Shown: positions 2,590 through 62,494, numbered from the stretch's first letter. The stretch is 64,000 nucleotides of DNA from an uncultured Candidatus Saccharibacteria bacterium (GCA_964450735.1 CAYVDC010000007.1:1374-65373); one strand, 5' to 3'. Program-made: numbers and translations. The notes: generated by a model not told the origin, from the sequence alone.

Positions 2590-2614
2590 CACATACATAT
2601 CTAGAATGCAAAAA

Positions 2615-2643
2615 CGGGAACCACAGGTTCCCGCTTTTTTTAT
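2615..2643 (+). terminator. Rho-independent terminator
   Basis: CGGGAACC-acag-GGTTCCCG hairpin followed by CTTTTTTTAT. Confidence 0.6.
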
Positions 2644-2655
2644 ATTCAGATTGTA

Positions 2656-3639: not shown

Positions 3640-3883
3640 AGTCGATCACAGCGAAACCAAGCGTGATAAATCCAAGAATAGCCAGGCTTGAACCGAGCAC
3701 TACTGCGTTTTCAAACGTAGCGATAAATCGTAACAAGATATAGCACGCGAAGAACGAAAGTATTGACACAATAATAAGCAAGTCATGCTTGAGGTGCGCG
3801 TCGATCTTTTCAAAATGATTATTCATGCTCATAGAGAGATAGTTTTTATAATAATTGGCGATCGTCAGAACGCCGTAATACAT
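3602..3883 (-). CDS. small hypothetical membrane protein
   Basis: 93-aa ORF with two hydrophobic segments; overlaps the start of the RDD gene; weak support. Confidence 0.25.
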   Translation of the reverse strand: MYYGVLTIANYYKNYLSMSMNNHFEKIDAHLKHDLLIIVSILSFFACYILLRFIATFENAVVLGSSLAILGFITLGFAVIDYVRYKVRAQKDK

Positions 3884-3936
3884 GTGGAGTATAACGTAGA
3901 GAGATTCAAAAATCCATAGCGGAGTTTAGAAAAAAT

Positions 3937-4626: not shown

Positions 4627-4655
4627 GTATCTATAGACTATAGAATGTAAGGGAA

Positions 4656-4679
4656 AATGCAAGTAAAAATCCCCTTTCG
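4656..4679. terminator. bidirectional hairpin (terminator/attenuator) between KH-protein gene and trmD
   Basis: AAAAATCCCC-tttc-GGGGATTTTT. Confidence 0.45.
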
Positions 4680-4702
4680 GGGATTTTTGCAATTCTTTTG
4701 AA

Positions 4703-5011
4703 TTAGAGGTTTTTGAGATCTTCCATCGCTTCGTCAACTGCTGACGTAGGATTTGCTGATTTCGTTCCACCTTCTGGTTCGTTGATCTTGAGATTAACGC
4801 GAGCGTTATTCTTCATACCAATGACTCGGAGGAGTGTTCGGATAGCTTTTGCTGTGTTTCCCATGCGGCCGATGATCTTGCCCATATCTGCTGGGTTTAC
4901 TGAAAGAGTGATCAATACGCCCATTTCGTCAACGACGCGATCGATTTTTACATCATTAGGGTTGTCTACCAATGCTTTTACAACGTACTCGAGAAATGCC
5001 TTATCATCCAT
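4703..5011 (-). CDS. KH-domain RNA-binding protein (UPF0109/YlqC-like), usual neighbour of rpsP
   Basis: GKIIGRMGNTAKAIRTLL is the KH GXXG loop; gene order rpsP-KH-trmD is conserved in many bacteria. Confidence 0.7.
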   Translation of the reverse strand: MDDKAFLEYVVKALVDNPNDVKIDRVVDEMGVLITLSVNPADMGKIIGRMGNTAKAIRTLLRVIGMKNNARVNLKINEPEGGTKSANPTSAVDEAMEDLKNL

Positions 5012-5173
5012 ATCGTTCTTATATGTAAACTTGTAATCTGTAAGTGGGGCGACTGTTTCCCCGCTTATCTAATGAGTATACAATTTTTTGGACACCACCG
5101 CAATATATATTCTTATTATCATGACCATGAAAAAATAAAATGCGCTCGATTTCTCGGCGCATTTTATTTTTTA

Positions 5174-5491
5174 TTATGCCTGCTTCAATTCTTTTCGCTT
5201 CTTCGTAGGAGCCTTCTTGGAGAGAACGTTTACTTTCTTTCCTTCGATGATCTTCTCGTGAACGAGGAAGTTGTGAACAGTGTCAGAGAGCTGAGCTCCT
5301 TTGCTGATCCATTCCTTGATTCGATCTGCCTTGAATGAAGTTCGGTTTTCCTTGAGCTTTGGGCTGTAGGTTCCGAGGATTTCTAAAAATCGTCCGCTTT
5401 TTGCTGCATTCTTGTGGTCGGTCAAAACTACTCGGAAAGCCGGGTCGTTCTTGCGTCCAATGCGCTGTAATCTGATCATTAACATAGGCAC
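5174..5491 (-). CDS. rpsP: 30S ribosomal protein S16
   Basis: MLMIRLQRIGRKNDPAFRVV...GRFLEILGTYSP matches the S16 N-terminal consensus. Confidence 0.85.
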   Translation of the reverse strand: MPMLMIRLQRIGRKNDPAFRVVLTDHKNAAKSGRFLEILGTYSPKLKENRTSFKADRIKEWISKGAQLSDTVHNFLVHEKIIEGKKVNVLSKKAPTKKRKELKQA

Positions 5492-11123: not shown

Positions 11124-12362
11124 TTAGCAAATGTGCCAGTAACCCAACAAGTAGGTTATCAAAGCAGCAACTGCCGTAGGAAATGTCAGAACGAACCATA
11201 ATGCGGCAACTTTGCATGTCCATGGCTTGGTTGCCCAGTACGCTCTTTGTTTCAAAAACCATCCAATGGCAGGGCCAGAATTTCTTGAAACGAAATTCAT
11301 AAACCAGCGTATAAGTAGGTAGAACCCAATAGCGCCAAAGAAGGCGAAAAAGTAATTCCAGAAATAGATTATCAGTGCAACAATGCCTAAGCACACAATG
11401 ATCAAACCTATCAACAACCAGTTCATCCATTCAGTGCCTTTTTCAGGAGCACGCCTGGTGTACACAAACTGTGGAGTTTCTTCTATTGCATATTCTTTTA
11501 CAACTATCGCTGAAGGTTTTTTGTATAAACTATACAGGAACCATCCTAGGGCGATCAGGCCAAGTAAGGATAATAACTCTATCGGAAACGCAACGGGTGC
11601 GGTTGCCGGAATTACAGTAACTTGTCTCAGTCTTGCATGCCCATCTATGATTACATAGCGCATGTCTGGCAAGGATGCTACAACATACAATGAATCTGTT
11701 TCATCGGTTTCCGAGAATTGCTCCTCGTTCCAGGTGATTCCAGTCACCGTTACGCTATCGTAACCTTTTGCATGCAGGTTCTCTACAATCAACGGCGTAG
11801 TACGTTCTACACGTGCTTGTGCAACTTGCGCATTCTCTGGCTCTAAAACGCCAGGTTGAATACTTGCCATGAAGCCGTTCTTGATCGCTTCAGGCGATGC
11901 AGTACCGTGTGCTGAAAAGTAAATTTCCGGCGTAGTTATAGAAAAGTTTTTAATTCCCTGAGCCTTGCGTACGGCTACTGCTTGTTTGTCATAATCCAAC
12001 AACAAGTCGAATTTGAACTTTTCTATCGAATCTGCCAGCAAGTTCGCCAATGTAGCAGCAACCTGTGCTTCTACATTATCGCTCGGAGCGACAATTTCGA
12101 ATTTCGGAGCTACCGGATATGGCACCTTAAAGCTGAAGGTAACGACCGTGTCGGTGTACTTTTGGCTTTCAACTTGTACTGGGGAAAGAATTCCCAGCCA
12201 GTTGAATGTGCGCTTACCATTCTCCATTTTATAGAAGCGGTGGTATGCGGTAACATTATTACCTTTTTTGTATTGGGTAATAGCGAAAACTACTAAAAAC
12301 AGGGCGCTTACGGTTAATAGAATTGCTGAGATTACAACGGAGGTACGGAATACTTTTTTCAT
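11124..12362 (-). CDS. hypothetical membrane protein (signal anchor, large extracytoplasmic domain, C-terminal multi-TM bundle)
   Basis: ORF with N-terminal hydrophobic segment and four or more C-terminal TM helices. Confidence 0.5.
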   Translation of the reverse strand: MKKVFRTSVVISAILLTVSALFLVVFAITQYKKGNNVTAYHRFYKMENGKRTFNWLGILSPVQVESQKYTDTVVTFSFKVPYPVAPKFEIVAPSDNVEAQVAATLANLLADSIEKFKFDLLLDYDKQAVAVRKAQGIKNFSITTPEIYFSAHGTASPEAIKNGFMASIQPGVLEPENAQVAQARVERTTPLIVENLHAKGYDSVTVTGITWNEEQFSETDETDSLYVVASLPDMRYVIIDGHARLRQVTVIPATAPVAFPIELLSLLGLIALGWFLYSLYKKPSAIVVKEYAIEETPQFVYTRRAPEKGTEWMNWLLIGLIIVCLGIVALIIYFWNYFFAFFGAIGFYLLIRWFMNFVSRNSGPAIGWFLKQRAYWATKPWTCKVAALWFVLTFPTAVAALITYLLGYWHIC

Positions 12363-15897: not shown

Positions 15898-16803
15898 TTA
15901 GCGCTTTCCAGTGATGATTGGAATAGCCTTGGCGATCAATGCCGTCACACTATCATACATGCGGAGGCTTGTCACCTCTTTCAAAGTGAACCATTTGCAG
16001 TCGTCCAAACCGCCTGAAGTTGATTCAAGTTTGACTGGAGTGTATGCAGATTCGCCCAAATAAAAGACCACTTGCTTTCGGATTTTGCCTTTTTGCGGAT
16101 GTGAGGCAACGTACTCATCATCACCAAGCTTTTCGATGATGCGCATATCGAGACTCATTTCTTTTTTGATTTCTCGGATAGCGGCCTGCTCTGAAGTCTC
16201 GCCTTCTTGAGCGCCTCCTTTTGAAAGTGTCCAATATCCGAAGACATCGTGCACGAGCGCAAGATAAATTTCACCATTGTCGATTGCGTATACGACAGCT
16301 CCAGCCTTCACTTCAATTGGAAGTTTTGAAATATCTACCGGCTCATCTTTCATCTGTCGCTTTGATTTCTGATCTTTGCCTGGCTCACCGAGTTCTTTGT
16401 AGACAGCTCCCAATACTCCGTTGATGAATCGTGACGAAGAGTCTGAACCGAATGTCTTTGCAAGTTCAATCGCTTCGTTGATAGAAACTTTTGGAGGAAC
16501 TTCATTGTGGTCGCCAAAAAGAAGCTCAGCAAGTCCCATGCGGAGAATGTTTCGGTCTACAGCATTGATCTTGTCGATCGGCCACTCTGGCGCAGCTTTG
16601 GCGATAATCTCATCAACAAGGTCCTTTTTGCGAACAACGTTCATAGCAAGCGTTTGCATGAACGGCAAGTCTTCGAGGCCTGGTGCGAACTCCTCAGAGT
16701 TGCGCTTCAAAATCTCCTCAATATCTGAGTCTGGCTTACCTTTAAAATCCCACTCGAAGAGGGTTTGGAGAATAACTGAACGTGATAGATGACGATTTGC
16801 CAT
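15898..16803 (-). CDS. nusB: NusB-like antitermination domain fused to a C-terminal NUDIX-like hydrolase domain
   Basis: The N-terminal ~140 aa are NusB-like (ANRHLSRSVILQTLFEWDF...RFINGVLGAVYKEL). The C-terminal ~140 aa carry a degenerate Nudix box (GGAQEGETSEQAAIREIKKEMSL) in a single continuous ORF. Confidence 0.7.
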   Translation of the reverse strand: MANRHLSRSVILQTLFEWDFKGKPDSDIEEILKRNSEEFAPGLEDLPFMQTLAMNVVRKKDLVDEIIAKAAPEWPIDKINAVDRNILRMGLAELLFGDHNEVPPKVSINEAIELAKTFGSDSSSRFINGVLGAVYKELGEPGKDQKSKRQMKDEPVDISKLPIEVKAGAVVYAIDNGEIYLALVHDVFGYWTLSKGGAQEGETSEQAAIREIKKEMSLDMRIIEKLGDDEYVASHPQKGKIRKQVVFYLGESAYTPVKLESTSGGLDDCKWFTLKEVTSLRMYDSVTALIAKAIPIITGKR

Positions 16804-33207: not shown

Positions 33208-33690
33208 TTATAAATACTTAATTTCTTTCCCCAACTTCGTCACCAAATCATGTTCCCACTGTGCGCCTTTGGATGTTTTCCAATTCGGCATGAAATAAAA
33301 CGTGGTGATTTTTTCCTTGTTCATCAGTGGTAGGTAAAAATCATCAAGGATGCTGTAAGCGTATTCTCCCGGCTTCAGGTCTTTCTTTAATTTCTGCATC
33401 GGCATCTCAAACGGCATCTGGTCAAAAACGTGCAAGCCTTCCGCTTGGAGTTTTTTGATTGTTTCATTGAATGCGTGCAAATTTGCTTCCAAGCTTCCCA
33501 GCCCACCGCTTGCGATCGGTCCGCAGACTTGAACCACCGTTTCCGGCATTCGTGAATACACTCGCTCGGCTATTGCGTACATCGCAGTTGCCGTTTCAGC
33601 GGCTTCCAAATCTGCCCAATCCTGGTCAGTCCAATATTGTAATGTTTCTTTACTTAATTCCATAAAAACTTTTAAGGCAGTTATCTTCAT
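33208..33690 (-). CDS. hypothetical protein, co-operonic with a Nudix hydrolase
   Basis: ORF only (VCGPIASGGLGSLEANL motif unassigned); overlaps the upstream Nudix gene by ~40 nt. Confidence 0.4.
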   Translation of the reverse strand: MKITALKVFMELSKETLQYWTDQDWADLEAAETATAMYAIAERVYSRMPETVVQVCGPIASGGLGSLEANLHAFNETIKKLQAEGLHVFDQMPFEMPMQKLKKDLKPGEYAYSILDDFYLPLMNKEKITTFYFMPNWKTSKGAQWEHDLVTKLGKEIKYL

Positions 33691-34093
33691 CAGGCATTAA
33701 ATACAATTTCAACGCATCTTTGGGAGTAGTCCAAACAAAGTCTATATGCTCGGCTTCACTCAATTTAACCTCAGGAAGGTAATCAAGAACTACCCTGTAA
33801 TTATAATAGATGAAATGTCTGTCACTATTATCATGCGTTACGTAAAATGTAATCGGGTCTTTAAATGATTCAAGATCAATCTGCAATCCTGTCTCTTCGA
33901 ATACTTCACGAGCGATTGCGTGTTTATTACTTAAATCTTCCTTATTTATTTTTCCACCAGGACGGCCATACATTAGTCCTTCGGCTTTATTTGGATGTCG
34001 TTTTAATTCCAAAATTTTTCCATCGCACTCAACAAAACAACCAACCACTTCAATAGGATTATCGAATGAGGCTGGTTGTTTTAGATAAAACAT
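33650..34093 (-). CDS. NUDIX hydrolase
   Basis: Canonical Nudix box GGKINKEDLSNKHAIAREVFEETGL. Confidence 0.8.
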   Translation of the reverse strand: MFYLKQPASFDNPIEVVGCFVECDGKILELKRHPNKAEGLMYGRPGGKINKEDLSNKHAIAREVFEETGLQIDLESFKDPITFYVTHDNSDRHFIYYNYRVVLDYLPEVKLSEAEHIDFVWTTPKDALKLYLMPDEDNCLKSFYGIK

Positions 34094-36193: not shown

Positions 36194-36274
36194 AGTATGT
36201 ATGTTGATTATAAAAATAAAAAGCGCACCCGGAAACACTAGAAACAGTCGATTTGTACCTAAAAAGTATACCAT

Positions 36275-36300
36275 ATTGCATATGCAAAAACCAGCTCGAA
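36275..36300. terminator. bidirectional terminator
   Basis: AAACCAGC-tcgaaat-GCTGGTTTT. Confidence 0.5.
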
Positions 36301-36340: not shown

Positions 36341-38713
36341 TTACACAGATTCTTGTAGTGGTGTTTCAGGCTCTTCTGCTGGAGCAGCAGGAGTAGGGGT
36401 TTCTTCTGGAACTGGAGTGTCGATAACTGGATTTTCTAATGGTGGAACTACTTCTTGTGTTCCTTCTGTTGTAGGCTCGACAGGTTGCAGTTCTGGCTCA
36501 GGAACTGGATCAGGTTCAGGGGCAGGACTAGGAGCAGGGACAATAACTGCTGTTCCGCACTCACCCGCAGTTTTTACAAAATCACCGTTAGCCAGTGTTA
36601 CGCAGTATGGAAGATGAGAAACAGTATCGTACATTGTAAATCCAGACGGTGTTTCTGGTGTTCCAAAGACAATGCTTTTTACATGAAGTACCATATCTGC
36701 GAATCGGCTTGCGAGCGAACTTGTGTCGCCTATTCCCTGAATAGAAGAAATTTTTATATCAAGTTCCTGAACAGCCTTGGTTAATACTGGAATGATTCCA
36801 GTATAGTTAAGCGAAAGATATTTGCCTTCTGTTACCAAATCTGGGAGAACAGTGCGGACTTCCTGGGCTATGAAGCCGATCTGTGGAGATCCGTCGCTAA
36901 TCATTCGGTATGTTACAGGACGCAGTGAATTGATGGTTTGCAAACCGTATGAGCTCGATGAAATATTTTGTTTCAATCGTTGGTCAGAAGAAATATTCAA
37001 GCTTTGTGTAATAACTCCGGTTGCGAAGATTTTTCCATCAACCTGGAGAAGTGCAGACCCATCGTCGATCTGATTGTTAGTATTTTCAAAATTATTGATA
37101 CCGATTCCAACTTTTCCATTTTTCAAAATTGTAAGAGCATCACTGTCTGAGCCTGTCCCCACACCATTACCAACAACGAAGAGTCGGTCCCTTGCATCAA
37201 AATCCAACGGGTCAAATGGTGTATAGTTTGTAGTGCTCAATCCTACTGACACTTCCGCGAACGATTTTGAAGATAATCTATAACCAATTGCGGTTGAGAC
37301 CTTGCCGCTCGCGGTTGCCTGCTGACCCATTGCAGTAGCATACTGGCCACTTGCAACAGTACCACTACCAAACGCAGTTGAAGTCGAACCTGAAGCAAGC
37401 GTACTCTGTCCGAACGCAGTTGCATTTTCATTGCTTGCGACAGAACCTGTGCCAAACGCGGTTGAAGCGTCAGCGCTTGCCGTACTTGATATTCCAAAAG
37501 CAGTTGCACCTGTACTGGACGCTGTTGTGGCAAAACCAAACGCAGTAGAAGCTATCCCAATGGAATCAGTATCTACTCCAAAGGCCACTGAACCATCATC
37601 ACCGGCATAGGTATTTGTTCCAAACGCTACAGTAAAGCGACCAACTGCATCTGTATTGTAACCGAAGGCCACGGCATAATCCCCAGAAGCGTTATTGCCG
37701 GAACCGAACACTGTCGTAAAATCACCGCTAGAAATAGTTCCGCTTCCGAGCGCTACACTGTGAAGGCCTGAAGCAATTGGTGCATCCAAACCTCGATCAT
37801 TGTCAGCAAAACCGATAGCAACGGAACGGTTGCCAATGTTGCCACCTTGCCATAAGCTGCCATTGACTGAACCAAGGCGTATCGCTTTTTGATCATAATT
37901 GAAGAAGAATTTTTGTTCCTCATTGAATTGGGTTACTGGAGTCATCTGCCACTTTTCTCCATCAATATAATTTGAAGAAACAAATGTAACATATACTCCA
38001 TCCTGCAATAGATCTGGAACTCCCGCATTGATTGGATTTCCTGTTGAAACAGTTACACCATTCAAAGTAAAAGTATAATCCGTTCCGCTTGGTTCAATTA
38101 TTACTGCATATACATCTGTGATACTGGAACCTGTATATGGTCCTTCAAAACCGACATCAGGGAATGAGCCAAAGTTTATAGGATTAGTTGTTGGTCCGAC
38201 GATTATCGTTGTTCCAGTATTATTATTAAAACTATCTGAATTAAATATAAATCCATTGCTTTTTACAGCCAGGCGATTTTGCCCGAGCATAATTTCGTTA
38301 GCTTCACTGGTTACTGCTCCATTCCCAATTGCGAACGAATTTGCCTGGCTTGCTGTACTAGCAGTTCCAAGTGCAATATTACCGATTTGCCCGAATTTCG
38401 CCATTTGAGAATTGTTCGTCTTAATGACAAAATCGGCTGCATCCGTCGTCCCAACAAAATTCGTTGTTCCTCCGTCAGTGCCTGCGTTTCCGGTAAGCCC
38501 CCAACCAACACCGTCACCAGTATTTTGAAAACAATTAGAAGAACCAGGAGCGCAACCTGGGTCGAGAATAGAATCTCCGAACAAATACCCGCCAGATGGA
38601 GGAACCGTGCCTGGAGAAAGCTGCGCAGAAAAAACTACAGCCCCATAACCCAAAACTGACAATACAGCTACGGAAAGAGAGACGAATTTTTTATACGGAA
38701 AAGCACGGAACAT
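36341..38713 (-). CDS. secreted fibre-like surface protein, paralog 1: signal peptide, conserved Cys-containing N-module, Gly/Ala/Ser/Thr-rich repeats (Hep_Hag/beta-helix-like), peptidase S74 intramolecular chaperone autoproteolysis domain, Pro/Glu-rich C-terminal tail
   Basis: N-terminus VLGYGAVVFSAQLSPGTVPPSGGYLFGDSILDPGCAPGSSNCFQNTGDGVGWGLTGNAGTDGGTTNFVGTTDA. The repeat region has recurring ..ATAFG..STASG.. units. The S74 block is SDQRLKQNISSSSYGLQTINSLRPVTYRM...IGFIAQEV...PVLTKAVQEL. The tail is PAPSPAPEPDPVPEPELQPVEP... Confidence 0.75.
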   Translation of the reverse strand: MFRAFPYKKFVSLSVAVLSVLGYGAVVFSAQLSPGTVPPSGGYLFGDSILDPGCAPGSSNCFQNTGDGVGWGLTGNAGTDGGTTNFVGTTDAADFVIKTNNSQMAKFGQIGNIALGTASTASQANSFAIGNGAVTSEANEIMLGQNRLAVKSNGFIFNSDSFNNNTGTTIIVGPTTNPINFGSFPDVGFEGPYTGSSITDVYAVIIEPSGTDYTFTLNGVTVSTGNPINAGVPDLLQDGVYVTFVSSNYIDGEKWQMTPVTQFNEEQKFFFNYDQKAIRLGSVNGSLWQGGNIGNRSVAIGFADNDRGLDAPIASGLHSVALGSGTISSGDFTTVFGSGNNASGDYAVAFGYNTDAVGRFTVAFGTNTYAGDDGSVAFGVDTDSIGIASTAFGFATTASSTGATAFGISSTASADASTAFGTGSVASNENATAFGQSTLASGSTSTAFGSGTVASGQYATAMGQQATASGKVSTAIGYRLSSKSFAEVSVGLSTTNYTPFDPLDFDARDRLFVVGNGVGTGSDSDALTILKNGKVGIGINNFENTNNQIDDGSALLQVDGKIFATGVITQSLNISSDQRLKQNISSSSYGLQTINSLRPVTYRMISDGSPQIGFIAQEVRTVLPDLVTEGKYLSLNYTGIIPVLTKAVQELDIKISSIQGIGDTSSLASRFADMVLHVKSIVFGTPETPSGFTMYDTVSHLPYCVTLANGDFVKTAGECGTAVIVPAPSPAPEPDPVPEPELQPVEPTTEGTQEVVPPLENPVIDTPVPEETPTPAAPAEEPETPLQESV

Positions 38714-38807: not shown

Positions 38808-40493
38808 TTACTGCACTACTACTTTTGCGGTAGTATCACCCGCTTTTAGGAAATAAATTCCTTTCGGCAAGTCTAATTGCAGTTGCTGTTTTGGAGAAGT
38901 AAGCTGATACGAAATCTGCTTGCTACCAATTACGTCATAAACATCTACCTTACCCAGGTTACGATAATCCTCGCTGGTTACAAAAAATGTACCATTATTA
39001 GGATTTGGGAATACTGTAAATGCGGTTTTAGAAACCGAAGCAACACCGGTCGGCGTGGCTATGGCAGGATATGTTTCAACCCGTAATTTGCTTGCATCCG
39101 CTCCGAACATCTCTGCTCGTATACCAGCGGGGAATTTGTAAATAAGGTTGTTGTACCTCATTTTCATATCAACCGTAGTGCCAGCAGGGATCGTTCCCTG
39201 TTGTACATACTGCACAGCTTTACTTTCAACCTGCAATGAGTTATCCGATGCATCAGGATTAAATATTTCTATTACTGAATTTTGGACAACCGTATCGAAT
39301 GGCGCTGCGCCAAGCGTGAACGGATTGTTTGCAGTACTGCTTACATAATACATCGGCAACCGCATGTCGGGGCCAATCTGCACATCTCTGTTTTGAGCAG
39401 GAATGTGTGTAGTAGCGAAATATTTCTCTTTCCAAAAAACGGAGCTCGCTAGATCAATCTGATTTCCATTTACGATAGCGAAATTAAATTTCGTAAAAAT
39501 CGTCATCAAGGCTGAATCTGACGCTCCAGGAAACATGTTTCTGAACACATCGAGCAACGCATCGATACCTACAGTATCACCAGCATGCCTGCCGTCATTA
39601 AAGGCTTGTGCCGCTTGAGCGGTACCAGTGTCGATAATAAACGTTGGAAACACATAACTAAACGTTATGGATTGTCCTGGAAGGAGTTTTAATTTTCCGT
39701 CCATATCCATAGTAGGAAACTGCTCCATTGGTGCGTAGGTTACTGGGTTGCGAGTGAAGAAATCTGCATACATCTCATTGCTAACTTCTGTTAGTTCGTA
39801 ACAGGAACGCGTTGGTGTTGTATAGCAATATCTTTTGGATGAATCCAGCCAAGAACGATGTTGAATGATATCTTCGGCAGACATGTAATTGTCGATCGTA
39901 CCGGGAACCTTATCCAAGGACCGCGGCTCGCCATCATCAGTATCAACCAAAATAGTATCGTTATTGTGGAACAATTCACCAAGGGTATGACCCTCGGTAG
40001 TCACAATACGCAGTGAGTCAGCTGAAATCATTCCTGTTTCCACCGCTACATGGTTGAAGAAGTTTTCACGTTCTCCGCACATGTGCGAGGCATTAGCCAG
40101 AAAAAATCCGCATGGGGTAAACTGCTTGCGTGCAACAAACCGGTCGAATCCATTGGGGCCGTACGAAGTGTACTCGGGATTCCGCAGGTGTACGATGTAC
40201 GGGCTTTTAACAAGCCTGGTCATCTCTCTGGTAAATCCGAAGGGGTCGCCTGTTGAAGCCATGTGATCATAATATGTTTGCTTGGTAGCAAAAATTATAT
40301 TATCACTGTCTTCAAACTGGGTTAGTAGGTAGAACTCCATGGGTACTGAATCGGTGTTTTGAATCGTCACACTAAAGCTGTCATTCGGGTTTGGAACATT
40401 CGCCGGAAAGCCTTTGAATAGTTCAACAACTTGTGCGTGTGAGGTAAAGGTAAAAAGCATTGCGGCAAAAGCCAGTAGATAGAATTTTTTCAT
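38808..40493 (-). CDS. secreted protein with C-terminal T9SS-type (Por) sorting domain
   Basis: Signal peptide MKKFYLLAFAAMLFTFTSHAQ. Last ~70 aa FPNPNNGTFFVTSEDYRNLGKVDVYDVIGSKQISYQLTSPKQQLQLDLPKGIYFLKAGDTTAKVVVQ match the Por_Secre_tail pattern (NP..., YD..G, LP.G(I/V)YF.K, K.V..). Confidence 0.6.
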   Translation of the reverse strand: MKKFYLLAFAAMLFTFTSHAQVVELFKGFPANVPNPNDSFSVTIQNTDSVPMEFYLLTQFEDSDNIIFATKQTYYDHMASTGDPFGFTREMTRLVKSPYIVHLRNPEYTSYGPNGFDRFVARKQFTPCGFFLANASHMCGERENFFNHVAVETGMISADSLRIVTTEGHTLGELFHNNDTILVDTDDGEPRSLDKVPGTIDNYMSAEDIIQHRSWLDSSKRYCYTTPTRSCYELTEVSNEMYADFFTRNPVTYAPMEQFPTMDMDGKLKLLPGQSITFSYVFPTFIIDTGTAQAAQAFNDGRHAGDTVGIDALLDVFRNMFPGASDSALMTIFTKFNFAIVNGNQIDLASSVFWKEKYFATTHIPAQNRDVQIGPDMRLPMYYVSSTANNPFTLGAAPFDTVVQNSVIEIFNPDASDNSLQVESKAVQYVQQGTIPAGTTVDMKMRYNNLIYKFPAGIRAEMFGADASKLRVETYPAIATPTGVASVSKTAFTVFPNPNNGTFFVTSEDYRNLGKVDVYDVIGSKQISYQLTSPKQQLQLDLPKGIYFLKAGDTTAKVVVQ

Positions 40494-53292: not shown

Positions 53293-53320
53293 ATACTGCC
53301 TATTTTACCATATTTGCCAA

Positions 53321-54290: not shown

Positions 54291-54983
54291 TTATGCACTA
54301 CGAGTAAAAGAAAGCAGTTCTTGAGATGAACGCGTAAGTGATACAAAACCTTTCTTGGTTATTACTCCAGTGTCTTCAATTCGTATTCCAAGCTTATTTG
54401 GAATATAGATTCCAGGCTCAACTGTTACCACCATATTCTCTCGGAAATACGGCCGCTCTCGTCGCCAATAAATACGCGGCGCTTCATGAATGCGAGTTCC
54501 AACACCATGCCCGAGCGTATGTACAAAGTATTTGTTGTACTCGCCCATAACCTCTCTTGAACGAAGATCTGAAAACGCCGCTTTTACATCTGGGAGATAC
54601 AATTTCTCTGCTTCAGTTTTTGATTTCAATACCATCGCATAGAGATCTTTTTCTTCTTTGGTTGGCTTGCCGACAAACACGGTACGCGTCATGTCAGACA
54701 TGTAGCCCTGAAAGATCACTCCGAAATCCAAAATAACAAAGCCTTCGAGTTTCGAATCAGTTGGTTTTGGATGAATGTCATTTCCTGCGCGAGCACCAGA
54801 AGTAACGATCGGAGGAAAGCTCGGTTTCAATCCGCGCTTTTTTATTTCAGAAGAAATAAAAGCCTGCAATTCAACCTCTGTCTTCCATTTAAAATTACTG
54901 ATGATTTTTTTGAAAATCTGATCGGTAATCTCGCAGGCTTTTTTTATTTTTGCTATTTCAGTTTTAGTTTTGACCTGGGCCAT
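54291..54983 (-). CDS. M24-family metallopeptidase (Xaa-Pro aminopeptidase/prolidase-like, short)
   Basis: Pita-bread fold metal ligands in DFGVIFQGYMSDMTRT, HTLGHGVGTRIHE, VVTVEPGIY, IEDT. Confidence 0.7.
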   Translation of the reverse strand: MAQVKTKTEIAKIKKACEITDQIFKKIISNFKWKTEVELQAFISSEIKKRGLKPSFPPIVTSGARAGNDIHPKPTDSKLEGFVILDFGVIFQGYMSDMTRTVFVGKPTKEEKDLYAMVLKSKTEAEKLYLPDVKAAFSDLRSREVMGEYNKYFVHTLGHGVGTRIHEAPRIYWRRERPYFRENMVVTVEPGIYIPNKLGIRIEDTGVITKKGFVSLTRSSQELLSFTRSA

Positions 54984-55581
54984 AAATATATTCCTTTATA
55001 AGTGAGAAAGAATCTGGACGAAGAGCAAAAAGTGGATCTTCCCCAGCATACACACGTTCAAGCTCGACTAGAGAAAAATATTTTGACCCCTCTACTTCAT
55101 CATTAACTGGAATATCATCTGCATCAACAAAAACTGCGGTCACATATACATCGACAAGTTCATTCTCGGTAAAATCTTCAGATACATACGAACTATGTCT
55201 CACCGTGCCGAGATAGACCATTTCCTCGGGCTCTTTTTGAATTCCCATTTCTTCAAATAGCTCACGTGCAGCTGCAACCTTGCTTTCTTCTTGAGTATCA
55301 ATGTGCCCGCCTGGAATCGCCCACTTGCCTGGATCAAGTTTTTTTGTCATTGCACGCTTCTGCAAGAGAAGATGTCCTGTATCATTTAATAGCCAGATTT
55401 GGGCAATTCGGTGTAATATGCCATGCTTGTGAATTTCAGACTTTGGAAGCACTTCTCCTGTTTCCATTCCATCCTCTCCGTATACATCCAAAAGTTCGTT
55501 ATTATTTTCCAGCATTTTTTTCTTCAGTGTTAGTAGTATCTTTCTCGCCCCATCTCCATCTTGGCTCTTCACCTGTAACAT
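54964..55581 (-). CDS. NUDIX hydrolase (start may be the internal Met near 55515)
   Basis: Nudix box GGHIDTQEESKVAAARELFEEMGI. Confidence 0.75.
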   Translation of the reverse strand: MLQVKSQDGDGARKILLTLKKKMLENNNELLDVYGEDGMETGEVLPKSEIHKHGILHRIAQIWLLNDTGHLLLQKRAMTKKLDPGKWAIPGGHIDTQEESKVAAARELFEEMGIQKEPEEMVYLGTVRHSSYVSEDFTENELVDVYVTAVFVDADDIPVNDEVEGSKYFSLVELERVYAGEDPLFALRPDSFSLIKEYIYGPGQN

Positions 55582-55792
55582 AACAAATAGTAATCAAAAA
55601 TATAGTCAGTATGATTATGTTAGGAAAAAAGTGGAAAAAGAGACCATTAAGTGACTGTGGATTCTGACTAACAAAGAGCCCATTGAAAAAGAGGCCTGCG
55701 ATATACAAAGCGAGCACAGCCCAGCCCTGCCAAGTAACTGGTGTCCATCCCCAGCCATATGTTTTTGCCTTAAACCATAGTTTATCTTTCAT
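55502..55792 (-). CDS. small hypothetical membrane protein
   Basis: 96-aa ORF with two TM helices; weak. Confidence 0.3.
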   Translation of the reverse strand: MKDKLWFKAKTYGWGWTPVTWQGWAVLALYIAGLFFNGLFVSQNPQSLNGLFFHFFPNIIILTIFLITICYVTGEEPRWRWGEKDTTNTEEKNAGK

Positions 55793-55854
55793 ATATACCT
55801 ATTATAGCAAAAACCGCTTCATGTTCCCATGAAGCGGTTTTTTATAGAAAGGTA

Positions 55855-56322
55855 TTAGCCGATGTACTTTGACATAAGCAACCACGCGAGAGTGCTCAAC
55901 AAGACGACAACGAGCTGATAGCCAGCTGTGAGGCCGAACATCATCCATGAGTGTCGCTTTGACTTGCCGCTCCAAAGCGCGCCTACTGTCAAAACAGGAA
56001 CAATAAATCCGAGCCAGATAAATACTCCATACATGAGTGCGCCGAGGACTGTAAGACCACCGACGGTGATCACGAGCAATGCTGCGACAAAACCGAGGGC
56101 GTAGTACTGAGCAAATGAAACTACGAAGTTCGTAAGATAGGTAGGGATCATTGCCTTCTGCATTGCCATCATTTCAGCCTTTGAAAGGCCAGATGGCATT
56201 TTGCTGCCGATGACTTCTGCCCACTGCTTTCCAAACAATGGACCATACCAAATAACTCCGACGATCATGCTCAAGACTGCACCAGCGAGTGCTGTCAAAG
56301 CTGTAAAAGCAAAAAGTGACAT
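55855..56322 (-). CDS. hypothetical integral membrane protein (four TM helices)
   Basis: Hydrophobic ORF; WYGPLFGKQW motif unassigned. Confidence 0.4.
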   Translation of the reverse strand: MSLFAFTALTALAGAVLSMIVGVIWYGPLFGKQWAEVIGSKMPSGLSKAEMMAMQKAMIPTYLTNFVVSFAQYYALGFVAALLVITVGGLTVLGALMYGVFIWLGFIVPVLTVGALWSGKSKRHSWMMFGLTAGYQLVVVLLSTLAWLLMSKYIG

Positions 56323-56401
56323 ACTATTTTATAACTGCTTAGTTTGTAAATCTTTCACTCCGAATAAAGGCTCGGCCGAAAGTGTCTGTGCGACAAGGCT
56401 A

Positions 56402-56962
56402 TTATACACCGAAAATCGCTGTGCGGAAATTTTCTTTATACACAGGATCAAGTGCTGCTTTGATGCAATCCATAGAAAGCTCGCCCACTCGAAAATCCTT
56501 GTGTTCAGACATAACGAGAAACTCATCAAATGTTACAAGCATGGTTTCGTGAAGACGCTCCCCTGCATCGAGCTTCGGTTCAGCTATTTTTTTACAGTTT
56601 GAAGCAATCACAACGAACGTTGATTTTTCAACAGTTCCAGCGAGCACTCGAGCGCGCATGAGCCTATAGTCCTCTGCCTCATATCCTGTTTCTTCGAGAA
56701 GTTCACGCTTGGCTACGCTGATTGGATCAGTTTCTTCTCGGTCAAAACGGCCCGCAGGCAGGCCGATATAAATACCTTCGTTCGGCTGTTCTTCTTTGTG
56801 CAAATATATTTTGTCGCCAATGGTCGGAATAATGATGACATTGTCGAGCGGACGAACAGCTTCGAATGTCTTGGTTGTACCATCAAAAAGCTCCTGTTCC
56901 CATTGGTAAACATCGAAGATCACTCCTTCAAAGACTTTTTTTGCGTGTTTGGGAATTGCCAT
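56402..56962 (-). CDS. NUDIX hydrolase (ADP-ribose pyrophosphatase-like)
   Basis: Nudix box GRFDREETDPISVAKRELLEETGYE. Confidence 0.8.
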   Translation of the reverse strand: MAIPKHAKKVFEGVIFDVYQWEQELFDGTTKTFEAVRPLDNVIIIPTIGDKIYLHKEEQPNEGIYIGLPAGRFDREETDPISVAKRELLEETGYEAEDYRLMRARVLAGTVEKSTFVVIASNCKKIAEPKLDAGERLHETMLVTFDEFLVMSEHKDFRVGELSMDCIKAALDPVYKENFRTAIFGV

Positions 56963-57000
56963 ATGCTGCTATGATACGTTTTCTAATAAAAAATGCAAAA

Positions 57001-57597
57001 TTACTGATCGCCGTATTTTTTTGAAATTTCTCCGAGCACCAACATTATTTCTTCTTTGTGGTCGACAAAATCGATCTCTTTTGCAGCAAGCTTGTTCGCA
57101 AATGTTTTCCAATGCATGAGGTCTAGTCCTGCTGTATCGCGTTTATCAAGTTCAAGATCATTCTCATTCAAATCATGTTCGATCAAGTATACAGAAACAA
57201 ATTGCTTGCCGATCTTTCCATCATATCTAGTCTCTAGCTGCTTTATGATTCCAATTTTTCTAAACAGCGATTCGTCGATCGTGATCCCCAGTTCTTCTGA
57301 TAATTCGGTTTTGACTGCATCCATCTCTGTCTGATCCCCATCAACATATCCCCCAAATGATTCTGCCCACTTGCCGGGATTATTCATGACATGCATCGAG
57401 CGCTGTACCAGATATAATTCCCCTTTTGAATTGATGATCCATGCGTGAACTGATTTGCACCACAATCCTTGGTTGACGGCGTCATCAATCGTTCCCATTC
57501 CAACGAGTATGCGATCTTCATTGTAAATGCCAACCGGAGTGCGGCTCAGCACCACTTCGTTTCCAGCTATTATGATTGTTTCTGGTTGTTCTTCCAT
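57001..57597 (-). CDS. NUDIX hydrolase (start placed at MEEQPETIII; the longer ORF in the track would overlap the tRNA)
   Basis: Nudix-like box GGYVDGDQTEMDAVKTELSEELGI (Arg replaced by Thr). The in-frame ATG at 57597 sits immediately before the tRNA-Leu 3' end. Confidence 0.7.
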   Translation of the reverse strand: MEEQPETIIIAGNEVVLSRTPVGIYNEDRILVGMGTIDDAVNQGLWCKSVHAWIINSKGELYLVQRSMHVMNNPGKWAESFGGYVDGDQTEMDAVKTELSEELGITIDESLFRKIGIIKQLETRYDGKIGKQFVSVYLIEHDLNENDLELDKRDTAGLDLMHWKTFANKLAAKEIDFVDHKEEIMLVLGEISKKYGDQ

Positions 57598-57598
57598 G

Positions 57599-57682
57599 TG
57601 CTGGGAGGGAGACTCGAACTCCCACGGCCTTGCGGCCACTTGCACCTGAAGCAAGCGCGTCTACCAATTCCGCCATTCCAGC
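57599..57682 (-). tRNA. tRNA-Leu (anticodon CAG), type II with long variable arm; CCA not encoded
   Basis: Revcomp GCTGGAATGGCGGAATTGGTAGACGCGCTTGCTTCAGGTGCAAGTGGCCGCAAGGCCGTGGGAGTTCGAGTCTCCCTCCCAGCA: 7-bp acceptor stem, D arm, anticodon loop TTCAGGT, variable stem-loop GGCCGCAAGGCC, T arm GGGAG-TTCGAGT-CTCCC. Confidence 0.8.
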
Positions 57683-57738
57683 ATTTGTTAGTGCAAACTA
57701 TACCGTATTTGCGGGCTCTTTGCTAGGCAAAGAAATAC

Positions 57739-57769
57739 AAAAGGCCGCCGGCGTAGCCGGCGGCCTTTT
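57739..57769 (-). terminator. Rho-independent terminator downstream of RRM-protein gene
   Basis: AAAAGGCCGCCGGC-gtag-CCGGCGGCCTTTT; on the minus strand it is followed by TTTTGTATTTC. Confidence 0.6.
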
Positions 57770-57780
57770 GCTTCACGACA

Positions 57781-58236: not shown

Positions 58237-59961
58237 TTATGGGAGAGAGTCCCAAAACAATTTAAAATTTCTGGAACTAGCCAGTTTGCCACGATCGCGA
58301 GCAAATATAAATCTCAAGCTTGTGCTGGTACCGTAGTTCACGTCAAAATCCAGGCTTACGGTGTGCCAACCTGGTCCTACCGTACAAAGTCCGGAAAGTG
58401 CAGTATTAGGAAAAAGACTTTCTTCCACTCTATACTCTGTACCATTAAAAGCCACAGAAGTATCTCCATACAATTCACCCTGGATCCTAACGTGGAATTT
58501 ACCTGCAGGGATTGATTGGCTTATTGCACTCGCAAATGAATGCGGTGCATTAGTTGTGTCTCGGTCAATTTGAGCGAGACTTAATTTTACTCCATGAATA
58601 GGAGTAAAACCTGTTGGACCAGTGGGGCCAGTTGGGCCTCCACCTGAACCAGTTGCACCAGGTATACCTTGAGGTCCAGTTGCACCTGTGTTTCCGGCAA
58701 TTCCTTGCGGGCCAGTATCTCCAGTCGGACCATTTTGGCCATTGGTACCATTCGTACCTGAGGGACCTTGTGGGCCGGTTGGACCGGTTGGACCAGTAGC
58801 ACCAAAACCTGTAGGTCCGGTGTTTCCTTGTAAACCAGTTGCTCCCGTTGCACCAACTAAACCCTGAATGCCTTGCAATCCTGTTGCACCGGTAGGACCA
58901 GTGTTTCCAGAAACGCCTTGTGCACCAGTTGCTCCTTGTAAACCTGTTGCTCCAGTGTTGCCGATTAAACCTTGTGGTCCAGTATTTCCGGTTGCGCCTT
59001 GAGTGCCGCTAATTCCGGGAATGCCTTGAGGTCCAGTTACACCTTGTGCTCCCTGCAAACCAGTAGCTCCTGTAGCTCCAATCAAGCCTTGTGGGCCAGT
59101 GGGGCCAGTTGCGCCGCCACCTGCACCAGTCGGTCCTTGTAAGCCTGTAGGGCCAGTTGCTCCAGTAATACCAATTCCAGTTACGCCAGGTAATCCTGTC
59201 GAACCTGTAATTCCAGGAATACCCTGAGCACCGGTTGGACCGGTTACTCCTTGCAAACCCGTTACTCCACTTGCACCAGTAGGCCCTTGAAGCCCTAAAG
59301 CTCCTTGGGGTCCCGTTGGGCCAGTTATGCCAGTAGTACCTTGCAAACCTTGTGGTCCAGTATTTCCGGTTGCGCCTGTAATTCCCTGCGGGCCAGTAGT
59401 TCCATTAAGACCAGTTGAACCAGTTGCGCCGCGAGCACCAACAGTGCCGTTTAATCCTTGGACGCCAGCAGGTCCGGTTACACCGGGTATACCTTGCGGG
59501 CCAATTTGGCCTGCTGGGCCAGTTGCGCCAGTCGGGCCAGGATTATCAGCATACAAAGCACGAGCTGCATAAAGTGAGTATGGTACGCTCTCTAACTTGG
59601 TCGAACCCATATTGATATATGCAGTACCGCCGTTAGGATCAAGCTCAACTAGTAAATACACATCTGCTCCACCCCATGGAATGGTTGGAAAATCATATCG
59701 TGTATCAGTTGGCATGCCGCTGCCGATAACATGCGTAAACAGTCCGAATCGGTTGGTAGTCGCTGTATCAGTCTCCTGATACAATGGAAAACCATTGTTA
59801 ACGCGGTGCGTGAGGGTAAGTCGAAAATTTACAAGACGGCCAGCAAGCGCATTTCCGGAAGCGTCCCGGGCAATGGCTTGGTAATTGATGCCTTGCGGTG
59901 CCTGTGCATCCGCCACTAAAGTCATCAACGCAATAAGCGTGAGTAGTATGGTTGTTTTCAT
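58237..59961 (-). CDS. collagen-like triple-helix repeat protein with signal peptide and N- and C-terminal globular domains
   Basis: Signal peptide [21 protein letters not shown]. About 100 uninterrupted Gly-X-Y triplets ([25 protein letters not shown]...) rich in Thr/Gln/Pro. The ~125-aa C-terminal non-collagenous domain may be C1q/TNF-like. Confidence 0.8.
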
Positions 59962-60109: not shown

Positions 60110-62494
60110 CTATTCAACGGTTGGCTCGATGACTGGTGGATTATTCCCTTCTTCTGGCGTTGTAGGTTCTTGCGGCGCGACTGGTTCCTCGCTCGGAGGA
60201 GGCACGTCTTGTACGACTGGTTCCTGCGGTGGTGGTGGTAATTGACCTTGATAATTTGCTCCGCCAGCAATACCGTTTTTATCAAGAAGCTCGTTGAACT
60301 GGGCTTCAGTGATACAACGTTCTCCAACACAAATCTGATCTTTTGCTTTGATAGTACCGGCTACAATTTTCACAATACCGTTTGCTTGATTGCCGAGCCA
60401 ATCTCCCAATTTGTGGGCAAATGCGGTGTCGCTTGCATCAAAATTCTCAATGCCTTTTATTTTCAGATTAAGTTCTTTTATTCCCTCAGCAAGAACTGGG
60501 GTGATGTTTGCATAATTTACCGCGAGCATTCCATCAGCATTTTGAGAAATCAACTCTGGGAAGAATTGCTGAATGTTCTGAGCGATAAAACCGATGTGGT
60601 TCTGAGTAAGATCATCGCCTGAGTTCCATTTGTATTTGACCGTTCGAAGCTGATCGATCAGCTCAAGCGTATTGTTTGGAAGTGGAACAATATCGGTCTT
60701 CAAACGTTCATCAGAAGAACAGCTTACGCCCGAACCAACTACGATCGAACAGCTGTTGCCGATTCCGCCGTTGAAAACGATTTGGTTAATTCGGAAAGTC
60801 GTCGAGCCCAACATGAGCTCATTGGACGCATTATTTATAGCACCAGTACCGAGAGCGATGCTATTTGAAAATCCGCCAGTATTTGTGTCCTCACCGATCA
60901 AAATAGATGTTTGACCTCTCGTACTAGTAAGTACTGTTCCTGTTGCTCCATTTCCTACTCCTGTAATAGTTTCTCCATTTACGTATAGCACGGTTGTTGA
61001 GTTAGCAAACGTCAGTGTCGTACCATTAACAGAAACTATGACATTGCTAGCCCCCGATATTGATCCGAGTACTGTGTCGCCCGGAACGAAAGTTCCTGAT
61101 CCTGGAGTAAACGTAACCGTTGTAAGGGTGTTATTTATAGTATCAGAATAGCCGGCGTTTCTACCGATAAAGATCGAGTTGCGAGCAGTAGCCGCGGCCG
61201 ATCCTGCATTCATACCAATGAACATGGAGCCACCAGCTGAAGTAGCGCTTTTACCGGAATTTTCTCCAATAAAGATTGCCTGCGATGCACCTGTAGCATT
61301 TAAACCCGATTGATTACCAAAGAAAAATGAATGTGAGGCATTTGTTGCTCCTTTTCCGGCATAGATACCGACATATGTTGAGTCGTTGGCATTGGTTGCA
61401 TTCATACCGGCTTCAAATCCGATGATTGTTGTTCCGCTGGCATTTATTGCGTCCATACCGGCCCGAGCACCAAGAAATGTCGAAGAATAAGCACCTTCTC
61501 CGCTTGTTATAGAACCAGGAGAATATCCACTCATGTAGCCTGCGCGATACCCAATGAATGTTGAAACTGTTGCGAGATTTGCTTTATATCCTGATTCCGC
61601 TCCCAAGAAAGTTGATTGAGCTGCTCCTGATGCTCCATATCCCGCTTGGTAACCAATAAAATTTGAGCCTCCACTAAACCCCAAACCATTGGCGGTTGGT
61701 CCAAGAAAATCCGCAGTGCTTTGAGCATTGTATCCTGCCTGATACCCAAACAGGTTGGAATTATTCGCACCTTCAGCTCCCACCAATGCTGGACCTGCTC
61801 CTGCTTCATATCCAAAAATATTTGAGTCGTGAGCATTGTCCGCTCCATCACCGGCGCGGTATCCGAAGAAGTTAGAATTAAAAGCACCAGTCGCTGTATT
61901 TCCAGCAAGGGCGCCGACAAAGTTTGAATACGTTGCATCAGTTGCTCCAAAACCTGCGCGGTCACCGAAGAAAGTAGAGAATGCTCCGTTCACCGCGTCC
62001 TCACCCGCTCTGTTTCCGAAGAAGTTTGCATTGTTCGCTTCGCTTGCTCCGCAACCAGCGCGAAATCCGAAAAAGTTTGCATCGTTGGCGTTGATTGCGT
62101 TACAACCAGAAAGCTCGCCGAAATAGTTCGAGTGGTCAGCGTTCGTTGCGTTAAGTCCTGCGTTGGTACCAATGAAATTCGAGAAGCCAGCATTGTCAGC
62201 ATTCAAGCCTGCGTTGATACCAATAAATACTGTGTTGTCTTGTGAACCACCACTATCTCCGGCTCCATTTCCAAGCCATGTGTAGCTGCCTGTAGTAACC
62301 AGATAGTAGGGGTCAACAACGCAGTCAGTTGATTGCGGAGCGCAGCCCGGATTGAGAATACTATCGTTACCTGCTGAATATCCTCCTGTTGGAGGCAAAG
62401 TGCCATCTGGTAATTGTGCTGCAAAAACAACAAAGCCGTAGCCGATAATGGAAAGAATCGTTATAGAAAAAGTAAGAAGTTTTTTCGAGAACAT
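60110..62494 (-). CDS. secreted fibre-like surface protein, paralog 3 (same N-module and S74 domain; central region of ~14-residue Asn/Ala/Gly/Phe periodic repeats)
   Basis: N-module LSIIGYGFVVFAAQLPDGTLPPTGGYSAGNDSILNPGCAPQSTDC. Repeats ..NANFFGNRAGEDAVNGAFSTFFGDRAGFGATDATYSNFVGALAG.. S74 block SSDERLKTDIVPLPNNTLELIDQLRTVKYKW...IGFIAQNIQ...PVLAEGIKELNLK. Tail PPPPQEPVVQDVPPPSEEPVAPQEPTTPEE. Confidence 0.75.
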   Translation of the reverse strand: MFSKKLLTFSITILSIIGYGFVVFAAQLPDGTLPPTGGYSAGNDSILNPGCAPQSTDCVVDPYYLVTTGSYTWLGNGAGDSGGSQDNTVFIGINAGLNADNAGFSNFIGTNAGLNATNADHSNYFGELSGCNAINANDANFFGFRAGCGASEANNANFFGNRAGEDAVNGAFSTFFGDRAGFGATDATYSNFVGALAGNTATGAFNSNFFGYRAGDGADNAHDSNIFGYEAGAGPALVGAEGANNSNLFGYQAGYNAQSTADFLGPTANGLGFSGGSNFIGYQAGYGASGAAQSTFLGAESGYKANLATVSTFIGYRAGYMSGYSPGSITSGEGAYSSTFLGARAGMDAINASGTTIIGFEAGMNATNANDSTYVGIYAGKGATNASHSFFFGNQSGLNATGASQAIFIGENSGKSATSAGGSMFIGMNAGSAAATARNSIFIGRNAGYSDTINNTLTTVTFTPGSGTFVPGDTVLGSISGASNVIVSVNGTTLTFANSTTVLYVNGETITGVGNGATGTVLTSTRGQTSILIGEDTNTGGFSNSIALGTGAINNASNELMLGSTTFRINQIVFNGGIGNSCSIVVGSGVSCSSDERLKTDIVPLPNNTLELIDQLRTVKYKWNSGDDLTQNHIGFIAQNIQQFFPELISQNADGMLAVNYANITPVLAEGIKELNLKIKGIENFDASDTAFAHKLGDWLGNQANGIVKIVAGTIKAKDQICVGERCITEAQFNELLDKNGIAGGANYQGQLPPPPQEPVVQDVPPPSEEPVAPQEPTTPEEGNNPPVIEPTVE

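Follow-up and report, generated by a model that had tools for sequence, protein, structure and literature searches.

A cluster of three divergent Nudix genes beside tRNA-Leu(CAG) in a Patescibacteria-like genome segment

The Nudix genes of the window

On a 64,000-nucleotide (nt) stretch of DNA from an uncultured Candidatus Saccharibacteria bacterium (GCA_964450735.1, CAYVDC010000007.1:1374-65373; hereafter the window, numbered from its first letter), three genes of the Nudix hydrolase superfamily, here termed N1, N2 and N3, lie inside 2.6 kb beside a gene for tRNA-Leu(CAG), and two more, N4 and N5, are found elsewhere. A preliminary description of this DNA had singled out the trio; here we describe its genes, their counterparts in related genomes and the signals that surround them. 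The window is gene-dense, its genes lie mostly on the minus strand, and the homologues of its proteins come from metagenome-assembled genomes (MAGs) labelled Candidatus Paceibacterota, Patescibacteria and related candidate phyla. The Nudix genes and the immediate neighbours of the trio are as follows (protein lengths in amino acids, aa).

57598..57682, minus strand: tRNA-Leu(CAG), predicted by ARAGORN, CCA end not encoded
57001..57597, minus strand: N3, 198-aa IDI/YfcD/DR0079-like Nudix-fold protein with a degenerate box (Pfam NUDIX, 36.3 bits)
56402..56962, minus strand: N2, 186-aa Nudix hydrolase (Pfam NUDIX, 36.8 bits)
55855..56322, minus strand: DUF1761 membrane protein (Pfam, 68.5 bits)
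55502..55792, minus strand: TM96, an open reading frame (ORF) for a 96-aa putative membrane protein, first gene of a predicted TM96-N1-M24 unit
54964..55515 (alternative start 55581), minus strand: N1, 183 aa, with a strict Nudix box (Pfam NUDIX, 72.3 bits)
54291..54983, minus strand: M24 metallopeptidase, 230 aa (Pfam Peptidase_M24, 170.7 bits)
33650..34093, minus strand: N4, 147-aa MutT/NudG-like Nudix hydrolase between gyrB and a DUF4406 gene (Pfam NUDIX, 47.1 bits)
15898..16803, minus strand: N5, 301-aa NusB-Nudix fusion (Pfam NusB, 115 bits; NUDIX, 47 bits)

All five Nudix ORFs exceed the Pfam NUDIX (PF00293) gathering score of 21.1 bits that served as our test of superfamily membership (36.3-72.3 bits), and a six-frame scan with regular expressions together with an iterated hidden Markov model (HMM) search found exactly five such genes in the window and no others. 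The count of five Nudix domains in 64 kb made in the preliminary description, which had allowed that most of them might fall short of HMM thresholds, is thus upheld, each ORF lying where it had been placed. So is the remark that the paralogs are divergent: local identity among the five domains is 25-37% over 22-129 residues, and they are therefore old paralogs. The Nudix boxes that had been reported as visible in all three genes of the trio proved to be in unequal states. The strict form, GX5EX7REUXEEXGU, occurs in N1 only; N2, like N4, has the key residues intact with a one-residue insertion (X8 for X7), and the box of N3 is degenerate (G..Q..TELSEELGI, with Q at position 7 and T at position 15), as is that of N5 (REIKKEMSL, with K at position 19 and S at position 22). 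None of the five proteins, under strict or relaxed matching, carries the NADH (NudC) motif SQPWPFPxS after the box or the CoA (NudL) motif LLTxR[SA]x3Rx3Gx3FPGG before it, and the subfamily motif tests as a whole, for NADH, CoA, ADP-ribose pyrophosphatase (ADPRase-Pro) and ApnA-Tyr, gave no positive assignment. The notion that these genes represent a heavy investment in sanitation is weakened, because catalytic motifs are degenerate in two of the five domains (N3 and N5), and N5 is, as described below, the normal NusB of its lineage.

The crowding of Nudix genes was gauged against two backgrounds, both taken from the flanks of anchor genes and not from whole genomes. Near N2 orthologs in unrelated Patescibacteria we counted 26 extra Nudix ORFs in 1.17 Mb (22 per Mb, or 1.43 per 64 kb), a rate at which four or more further Nudix ORFs in 64 kb have P ~0.06 and two more within 2.6 kb, given one, have P ~2e-3. 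Related loci anchored on GyrB held 48 Nudix ORFs in 1.09 Mb, and are dominated by a syntenic NusB-Nudix gene that was counted apart; 40 of the 48 are such fusions and 8 are stand-alone genes, giving a stand-alone rate of 7.3 per Mb (0.47 per 64 kb), with P ~0.001 for four or more stand-alone Nudix genes in 64 kb and P ~2e-4 for two more within 2.6 kb, given one. The density is thus unusual, as had been claimed, where the trio is concerned (P ~2e-4 to 2e-3), but over the window as a whole the excess above the lineage background is only 3-8-fold.

Family, fold and motif state of the individual proteins

N2 carries the box GX5EX8RELLEETGY and, downstream of it, an LDxGE motif whose Glu135 aligns to LDQGE of a Bdellovibrio nucleoside diphosphate (NDP)-sugar hydrolase, NudF (PDB 5c7q, matched at 5e-11); further sequence matches are to ADP-ribose pyrophosphatases and NudE. 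The RE..EE.G box and Glu135 are invariant in 40 members of the N2 family. The AlphaFold2 model, with a predicted local distance difference test score (pLDDT) of 96, returned ADPRases or NDP-sugar hydrolases as all 50 of the matches listed by Foldseek (TM-score 0.55-0.71, normalised to the query), and N2 has both features looked for in this subfamily, namely the full-length fold including an N-terminal beta domain and the downstream catalytic Glu. The predicted fold and this Glu, and not the proline marker considered further on, are what supports an assignment of N2 to the ADP-ribose/NDP-sugar pyrophosphatase type. Homologues of N2 number 2355 and are mostly from Patescibacteria.

N1 has 17 close homologues, most of them 175-183 aa long, beyond which identity drops sharply to 37% or less; its start at 55515 is more likely than that at 55581, because most homologues are about 183 aa in length. 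Its best PDB matches include Nudix proteins listed as isopentenyl-diphosphate isomerase (IDI), Nudix hydrolase 1 and NudI, which are proteins that handle prenyl diphosphates. Aligned to E. coli IDI (1ow2) by phmmer at 7e-9, N1 keeps all five metal ligands (His25, His32, His69, Glu114 and Glu116); of the catalytic pair that IDI requires in our test, Cys67 of NSxCxHP and Glu116, it retains the glutamate and has Gly in place of the cysteine. This replacement, together with the perfect Nudix box, argues that N1 should be an IDI/YfcD-type hydrolase and not an isomerase. Identity as IDI was considered for both N1 and N3 and rejected, as the catalytic Cys67 is absent and the scores (67.9 and 41.1 bits, respectively) lie below the NCBIfam IDI cutoff of 127 bits; the label "isopentenyl-diphosphate isomerase" that both bear in the JGI annotation is probably wrong.

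The AlphaFold2 model of N3 (pLDDT 94) has IDI-1, DR0079 and YfcD as its top Foldseek matches. Close homologues are limited to ten, 48-84% identical, with the next best dropping sharply to 37% identity or less. N3 lacks the box residues Glu7 and Arg15, and inspection of the alignment also showed it to be without the IDI residues Cys67, His32, His69, Glu114 and Glu116. The box changes are conserved among the orthologs, with R replaced by T, S or N and E by Q, K, M or A, and with T, S or N at position 15 in 10/10. Because these changes in box and ligands are common to ten orthologs that differ as much as 48-84% identity implies, N3 is judged to be constrained and not decaying, and comparison of the orthologous sequences makes purifying selection on them evident. 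A start at the internal Met33 of N3 was rejected, since residues 7-35 show conservation across the orthologs and are modelled with confidence as beta strands.

Away from the trio, N4 finds its best PDB match in a CTP pyrophosphohydrolase (2rrk, 2e-8). Because the DUF4406 gene directly follows gyrB in three related loci (L095, L151 and L157; L numbers designate the loci compared), N4 looks like an insertion between the two. An N4-like ORF follows gyrB in L097 and, in part, in L099, thus in two loci at most, and a scripted criterion, which asked for a Nudix ORF with its start just downstream of gyrB, picked out 1/67 loci. N4 overlaps the DUF4406 gene that follows it by 41 nt (window 33208-34093, minus strand).

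N5 reaches 123.7 bits against the NusB model TIGR01951 (cutoff 88.35), its PDB matches to NusB extend to 1e-18, and the nearest matches of its Nudix domain are Ndx1 and Ap4A hydrolases (~1e-6). In the GyrB-anchored related loci, 40 of 41 NusB ORFs carry a Nudix domain, and the NusB-Nudix fusion is the normal form of NusB in this lineage. The fusion was seen also at L036 (1803-2738), at L086 (18117-19037) and in 40 loci among L092-L171. Full-length fusions account for at least 50 of the best 150 representative clusters, down to 31% identity. The canonical REUxEExGU box is kept in only 5/37 aligned fusions, being degenerate in 32/37. The literature searched held no description of a NusB-Nudix fusion.

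Gene order, transcription signals and the tRNA-Leu junction

Conservation was surveyed in 80 GTDB species-level loci around N2 orthologs. N3 stands beside N2 only in the four closest of these (N2 identity 62-91%), one of which, L012, is missing N1; in the other 76 loci N2 occurs without N1, N3, DUF1761 and TM96, with the partial exception of L035, where N2, M24 and DUF1761 are neighbours. Metagenomic relatives with 55-68% identity in N2 preserve the same order, namely an RRM protein, in some an acylphosphatase, then N3, N2, DUF1761, TM96, N1, M24, a gene of unknown type, MurD/MurC and UvrD, and at about 45% identity the neighbours of N2 are unrelated. The locus of the closest relatives holds 2-4 Nudix genes, and they are clustered there as in the window; the same number dispersed, which the preliminary description had named as an observation that would speak against a true cluster, was not what these genomes contained. 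L091 has N2 and N1 without N3. In L012 N1 has been cleanly deleted and a 618-aa gene inserted, with TM96 and M24 retained. In L090 (GCA_020049755.1, 4231-7230) the slot of N3 is taken by a 369-aa double-Nudix protein, the C-terminal domain of which is IDI-like with the box LHELHEEVGL, and N2 is present as two tandem copies, so that this locus, including N1, comprises four genes and five Nudix domains. N2 is the constant element of the locus, and N1 and N3 are dispensable additions. We judge it likely that the trio brings together three different housekeeping Nudix genes in a lineage-specific juxtaposition, and is not a dedicated system, in a core region 3' of tRNA-Leu(CAG) in a small Paceibacteria-like clade of Patescibacteria.

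The segment between tRNA-Leu and N2 varies among relatives, containing N3 alone, acylphosphatase and N3, acylphosphatase and DoxX, or acylphosphatase, the double-Nudix gene and DoxX. Such differences, along with the tandem duplication of N2 in L090 and the inserted 618-aa gene of L012, would also be expected if the slot 3' of tRNA-Leu were a neutral hot spot that gains Nudix genes by insertion or duplication, with no selection for their clustering. Neither mobile-element genes nor flanking repeats were found there, however, and N3 orthologs have conserved motifs under evident purifying selection. We regard a purely neutral hot spot as distinctly unlikely; it overlaps the juxtaposition of housekeeping genes favoured above, and does not contradict it.

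Signals predicted to delimit transcripts in and around the trio were sought by scanning and by comparison among relatives, and those retained are the following.

57737..57771, minus strand: intrinsic terminator after the RRM-protein gene, with a 16-bp stem, 11 G-C pairs and a T tract (terminator scan)
57696..57709, minus strand: conserved promoter-like motif AATACGGTATAGTT, with a -10 hexamer TATAGT at 57702-57697
56971..56999, minus strand: sigma-70-type promoter TTTGCA-17-TATCAT (promoter scan), directly after the N3 stop and 8 nt before the N2 ATG
55809..55842, minus strand: intrinsic terminator hairpin between DUF1761 and TM96 (-23.1 kcal/mol, z = -6.2, U tract)
55801..55809, minus strand: extended -10 promoter element TGCTATAAT, 8 nt before the TM96 ATG

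The first of these would close the transcription unit upstream of tRNA-Leu. The TATAGT hexamer ends 14 nt upstream of the tRNA 5' end, and the core ATAC[G/A][G/C]TATAGTT precedes tRNA-Leu in the window, L010, L011, L012, L013 and L004, with one-base variants and with a spacing that varies by several nt; the window has one exact copy of AATACGGTATAGTT and one more site, at 36264-36277, with 2 mismatches. The architecture of the N2 promoter is conserved in the same six loci. The hairpin between DUF1761 and TM96 shows compensatory changes in 5/14 pairs across five orthologous loci, and the TGCTATAAT element is conserved too, the form TGnTA[TG]AAT being shared by the window, L010, L011 and L004 and L006 having TGCTATACT. 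Since a conserved promoter (that of N2) and a conserved terminator-promoter pair (that preceding TM96) split the trio, it does not appear to form one operon, and sequence conservation speaks against the co-transcription for which the preliminary description had suggested a test. At least three units are inferred, [tRNA-Leu-N3], [N2-DUF1761] and [TM96-N1-M24...].

With its promoter 8 nt ahead of the ATG, N2 would have a leaderless mRNA, and sites of this kind are numerous in the window. The 0-12 nt that precede start codons are enriched in strong -10 hexamers (26 matches in 13 positions, versus 23 in the next 42 positions); a -10 hexamer matching at 5/6 or more positions ends 4-11 nt before the ATG in 16/56 genes, several with a TGn extension (for example at 56963-56999, 55793-55809 and 53293-53313), and a motif of any kind resembling a Shine-Dalgarno sequence precedes just 6/56. 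This pattern suggests that leaderless mRNAs are the rule in this genome. The literature searched held nothing relevant on leaderless translation in the candidate phyla radiation (CPR).

The junction between tRNA-Leu(CAG) and N3 is as close as had been reported: the N3 ATG at 57597 follows the ARAGORN tRNA end by 0 nt and the discriminator base by 1 nt. An orthologous tRNA-Leu lies in the same position in L004, L006, L010-L013 and L091. In 5/8 related loci the distance from the tRNA 3' end to the next ATG is 0-1 nt (window 57595-57600, minus strand; L011 9364-9368; L012 2180-2184; L004 9097-9100; L091 5836-5839), the next gene being N3 in three and acylphosphatase in two; of the remaining loci, two have a spacing of 8-10 nt and one has a spacing of 40 nt. 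Because neither a Shine-Dalgarno motif nor an internal promoter was detected, the mRNA 5' end of the next gene may be made by tRNA 3' processing, by analogy with the tRNA punctuation of mitochondria. By extension, the slot 3' of tRNA-Leu(CAG) could be a site where IDI-like Nudix genes diversify, N3 being a neofunctionalised and possibly non-catalytic product translated from a leaderless mRNA that tRNA processing creates. This proposal is tentative, and we think it unlikely. If true, it would tie the dosage of N3 to transcription of tRNA-Leu(CAG) and, taken with the lineage-wide NusB-Nudix fusion, would point to Nudix folds having been recruited in Patescibacteria as nucleotide or RNA-end sensors of the gene-expression machinery, and not as sanitising enzymes.

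Two small genes separate N1 and N2, as had been described: DUF1761 and the 96-aa TM96. The DUF1761 gene follows N2 in all syntenic loci, and is probably co-transcribed with it. TM96 has orthologues in the syntenic loci and no family match above threshold; its membrane label is adopted from the preliminary description. There is a 14-nt overlap between TM96 and N1 and one of 20 nt between N1 and M24. All relatives have the M24 start codon 20 nt within the gene ahead of it, even L012, in which TM96 and not N1 is that gene. The M24 peptidase is without an N-terminal domain.

This tight packing raises the alternative of a membrane-associated module, in which N2 and N1 would act with the membrane proteins DUF1761 and TM96, with DoxX in relatives, and with M24, possibly in the turnover of envelope precursors such as prenyl diphosphates or NDP-sugars beside the Mur ligases, with N3 as an accessory or regulatory subunit. 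N2-DUF1761 and TM96-N1-M24 are indeed conserved as tightly packed or overlapping units in all members of the clade; N2, M24 and DUF1761 are adjacent in the distant L035; N1 has IDI, Nudix hydrolase 1 and NudI among its best PDB matches; and MurD and MurC lie just downstream, with PAP2 and BacA upstream in relatives. On the other hand, all of the partners are absent beside N2 in about 90% of Patescibacteria loci, N1 has been deleted in L012 while TM96 and M24 stay, and the conserved terminator parts DUF1761 from TM96-N1. Moreover, because the whole 20-kb region is collinear in close relatives, conserved adjacency within it carries little functional information. A membrane module is on balance unlikely.

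The neighbourhood of the trio is that of core genes. MurC, MurD, the M24 peptidase and a UvrD-PDDEXK helicase adjoin it, and SMC, RNase III, RNase HII, L32, GyrB and ThrRS lie near N4 and N5, away from the trio; an RRM protein and several fibre-like surface proteins complete the set of window genes recognized. GC content is even along the window, and the trio matches the surrounding sequence. This setting bears on the anti-phage or anti-toxin function that had been raised in the preliminary description, by which Nudix enzymes would counter defence systems based on nucleotide signals. In such a role they would degrade nucleotide second messengers, NAD-derived signals or ADP-ribose adducts in conflicts with phages or hosts. 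N1, N3, N4 and N5 have weak PADLOC matches (26-46 bits) to a candidate Nudix model, PDC-S07, a gene with a NADAR domain occurs near the locus in L091 (between MurD and MurC, 11590-12039), and the gene content of the slot 3' of the tRNA varies. PDC-S07 is a single-gene candidate, however, and the matches reflect the shared Nudix fold only; N2, DUF1761, TM96 and the neighbours had no match in PADLOC-DB. The neighbours examined included no defence gene, integrase or transposase, and a search for an attachment-site-like repeat of the tRNA 3' end found none. With a GC content like that of its surroundings, and with trio genes that are syntenic core genes across species-level relatives in a collinear region, the locus makes a defence or counter-defence role very improbable.

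Elsewhere in the window are four large putative surface proteins, all on the minus strand (58237-59961, 60110-62494, 36341-38713 and 38808-40493). One, of 574 aa, has collagen triple-helix repeats, one has a Por_Secre_tail sorting domain, and two have a Peptidase_S74 (endosialidase chaperone) domain, joined in one of these by YadA head repeats. All four may serve an episymbiont as adhesins or fibres.

Interpretation and relation to known systems

Several observations weigh against reading the trio as a mere juxtaposition of housekeeping genes, or against parts of the argument for it. The tight grouping of N1, N2 and N3 is a non-random arrangement. Another Nudix gene lies directly beside N2 in 7/76 unrelated orthologous loci, and in L071, from a Kaiserbacteria MAG (2122-5291), three Nudix ORFs fall within 3.2 kb; because Nudix neighbours recur in this manner at unrelated N2 loci, a functional reason for their sitting together is possible. 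The N2-M24-DUF1761 adjacency of L035 (2738-4886) comes from a distant Magasanikbacteria MAG. N2 has no proline within 20 residues after its box, and in its family a Pro at about +13 is present in 48% of the members; a conserved proline some 15-16 residues after the Nudix box is, reportedly, the marker of ADPRases recognized by the Bessman group. As to transcription, the absence of a terminator separating N3 and N2 makes read-through from one to the other possible, and the promoters and terminators are deduced from sequence conservation only; the generic promoter and terminator scan was not above shuffled expectation and missed the DUF1761/TM96 terminator, and it took cross-species comparison to bring out the conserved elements. 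As an observation apart, tandem N2 paralogs occur in another MAG (L041, 2641-3784).

Under the juxtaposition that we favour, the three genes of the trio would have separate roles. N2 would be the phylum-wide enzyme, splitting ADP-ribose or a related NDP-sugar into nucleoside monophosphate and sugar phosphate and thereby serving, in a reduced metabolism, the salvage of nucleotide and pentose and the removal of a reactive metabolite. N1, judged by its sequence, would be an active Nudix diphosphatase of IDI/YfcD type, with a full box and a His3Glu2 metal site, and without the isomerase cysteine. N3 would be a clade-restricted paralog of N1 type, and would most likely act as a hydrolase of reduced or altered function or else in binding a ligand.

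Beyond illustrating that Nudix genes can accumulate at one place in a reduced genome, the cluster is of little consequence by itself. More useful for the interpretation of Patescibacteria genomes are the constitutive fusion of NusB to a mostly degenerate Nudix domain, the apparent use of leaderless mRNAs, with promoters that lie 8 nt ahead of the ATG, and the coincidence of a tRNA 3' end with the start codon of the next gene. On Nudix genes in CPR or Patescibacteria the literature searched held nothing relevant.

The Nudix genes of the window belong to known subfamilies, and each can be set beside its nearest characterized relatives. N2 has in common with NudF (5C7Q), E. coli NudE and NudF, B. 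methanolicus Act and human NUDT5 an N-terminal beta domain joined to the Nudix domain, and with ADP-ribose/NDP-sugar pyrophosphatases generally the box glutamates and the downstream glutamate of LDxGE; it differs in one extra box residue (GX5EX8RE...), in the marker proline, which is absent in N2 and half-conserved in its family, and in an identity to any solved structure of no more than 17-25%. N1 and N3 match the IDI type 1/YfcD/DR0079 branch (COG1443) by sequence, N3 also by predicted structure, and N1 departs from IDI itself in having a perfect Nudix box, and Gly in place of the catalytic Cys67. N4 resembles the (d)NTP pyrophosphohydrolases of E. coli NudG/MutT type in being a single Nudix domain closest to 2RRK, but scores 46.7 bits, far under the NCBIfam equivalog cutoff of 156, and has a one-residue insertion in the box. 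Finally, whereas canonical NusB, with about 140 aa, stands alone, the NusB of N5 makes up the N-terminal 140 residues of a longer chain, fused to a Nudix domain that is like T. thermophilus Ndx1 and the Aquifex Ap4A hydrolase in sequence, and that differs from them in a catalytic box degenerate in most of the aligned representatives.

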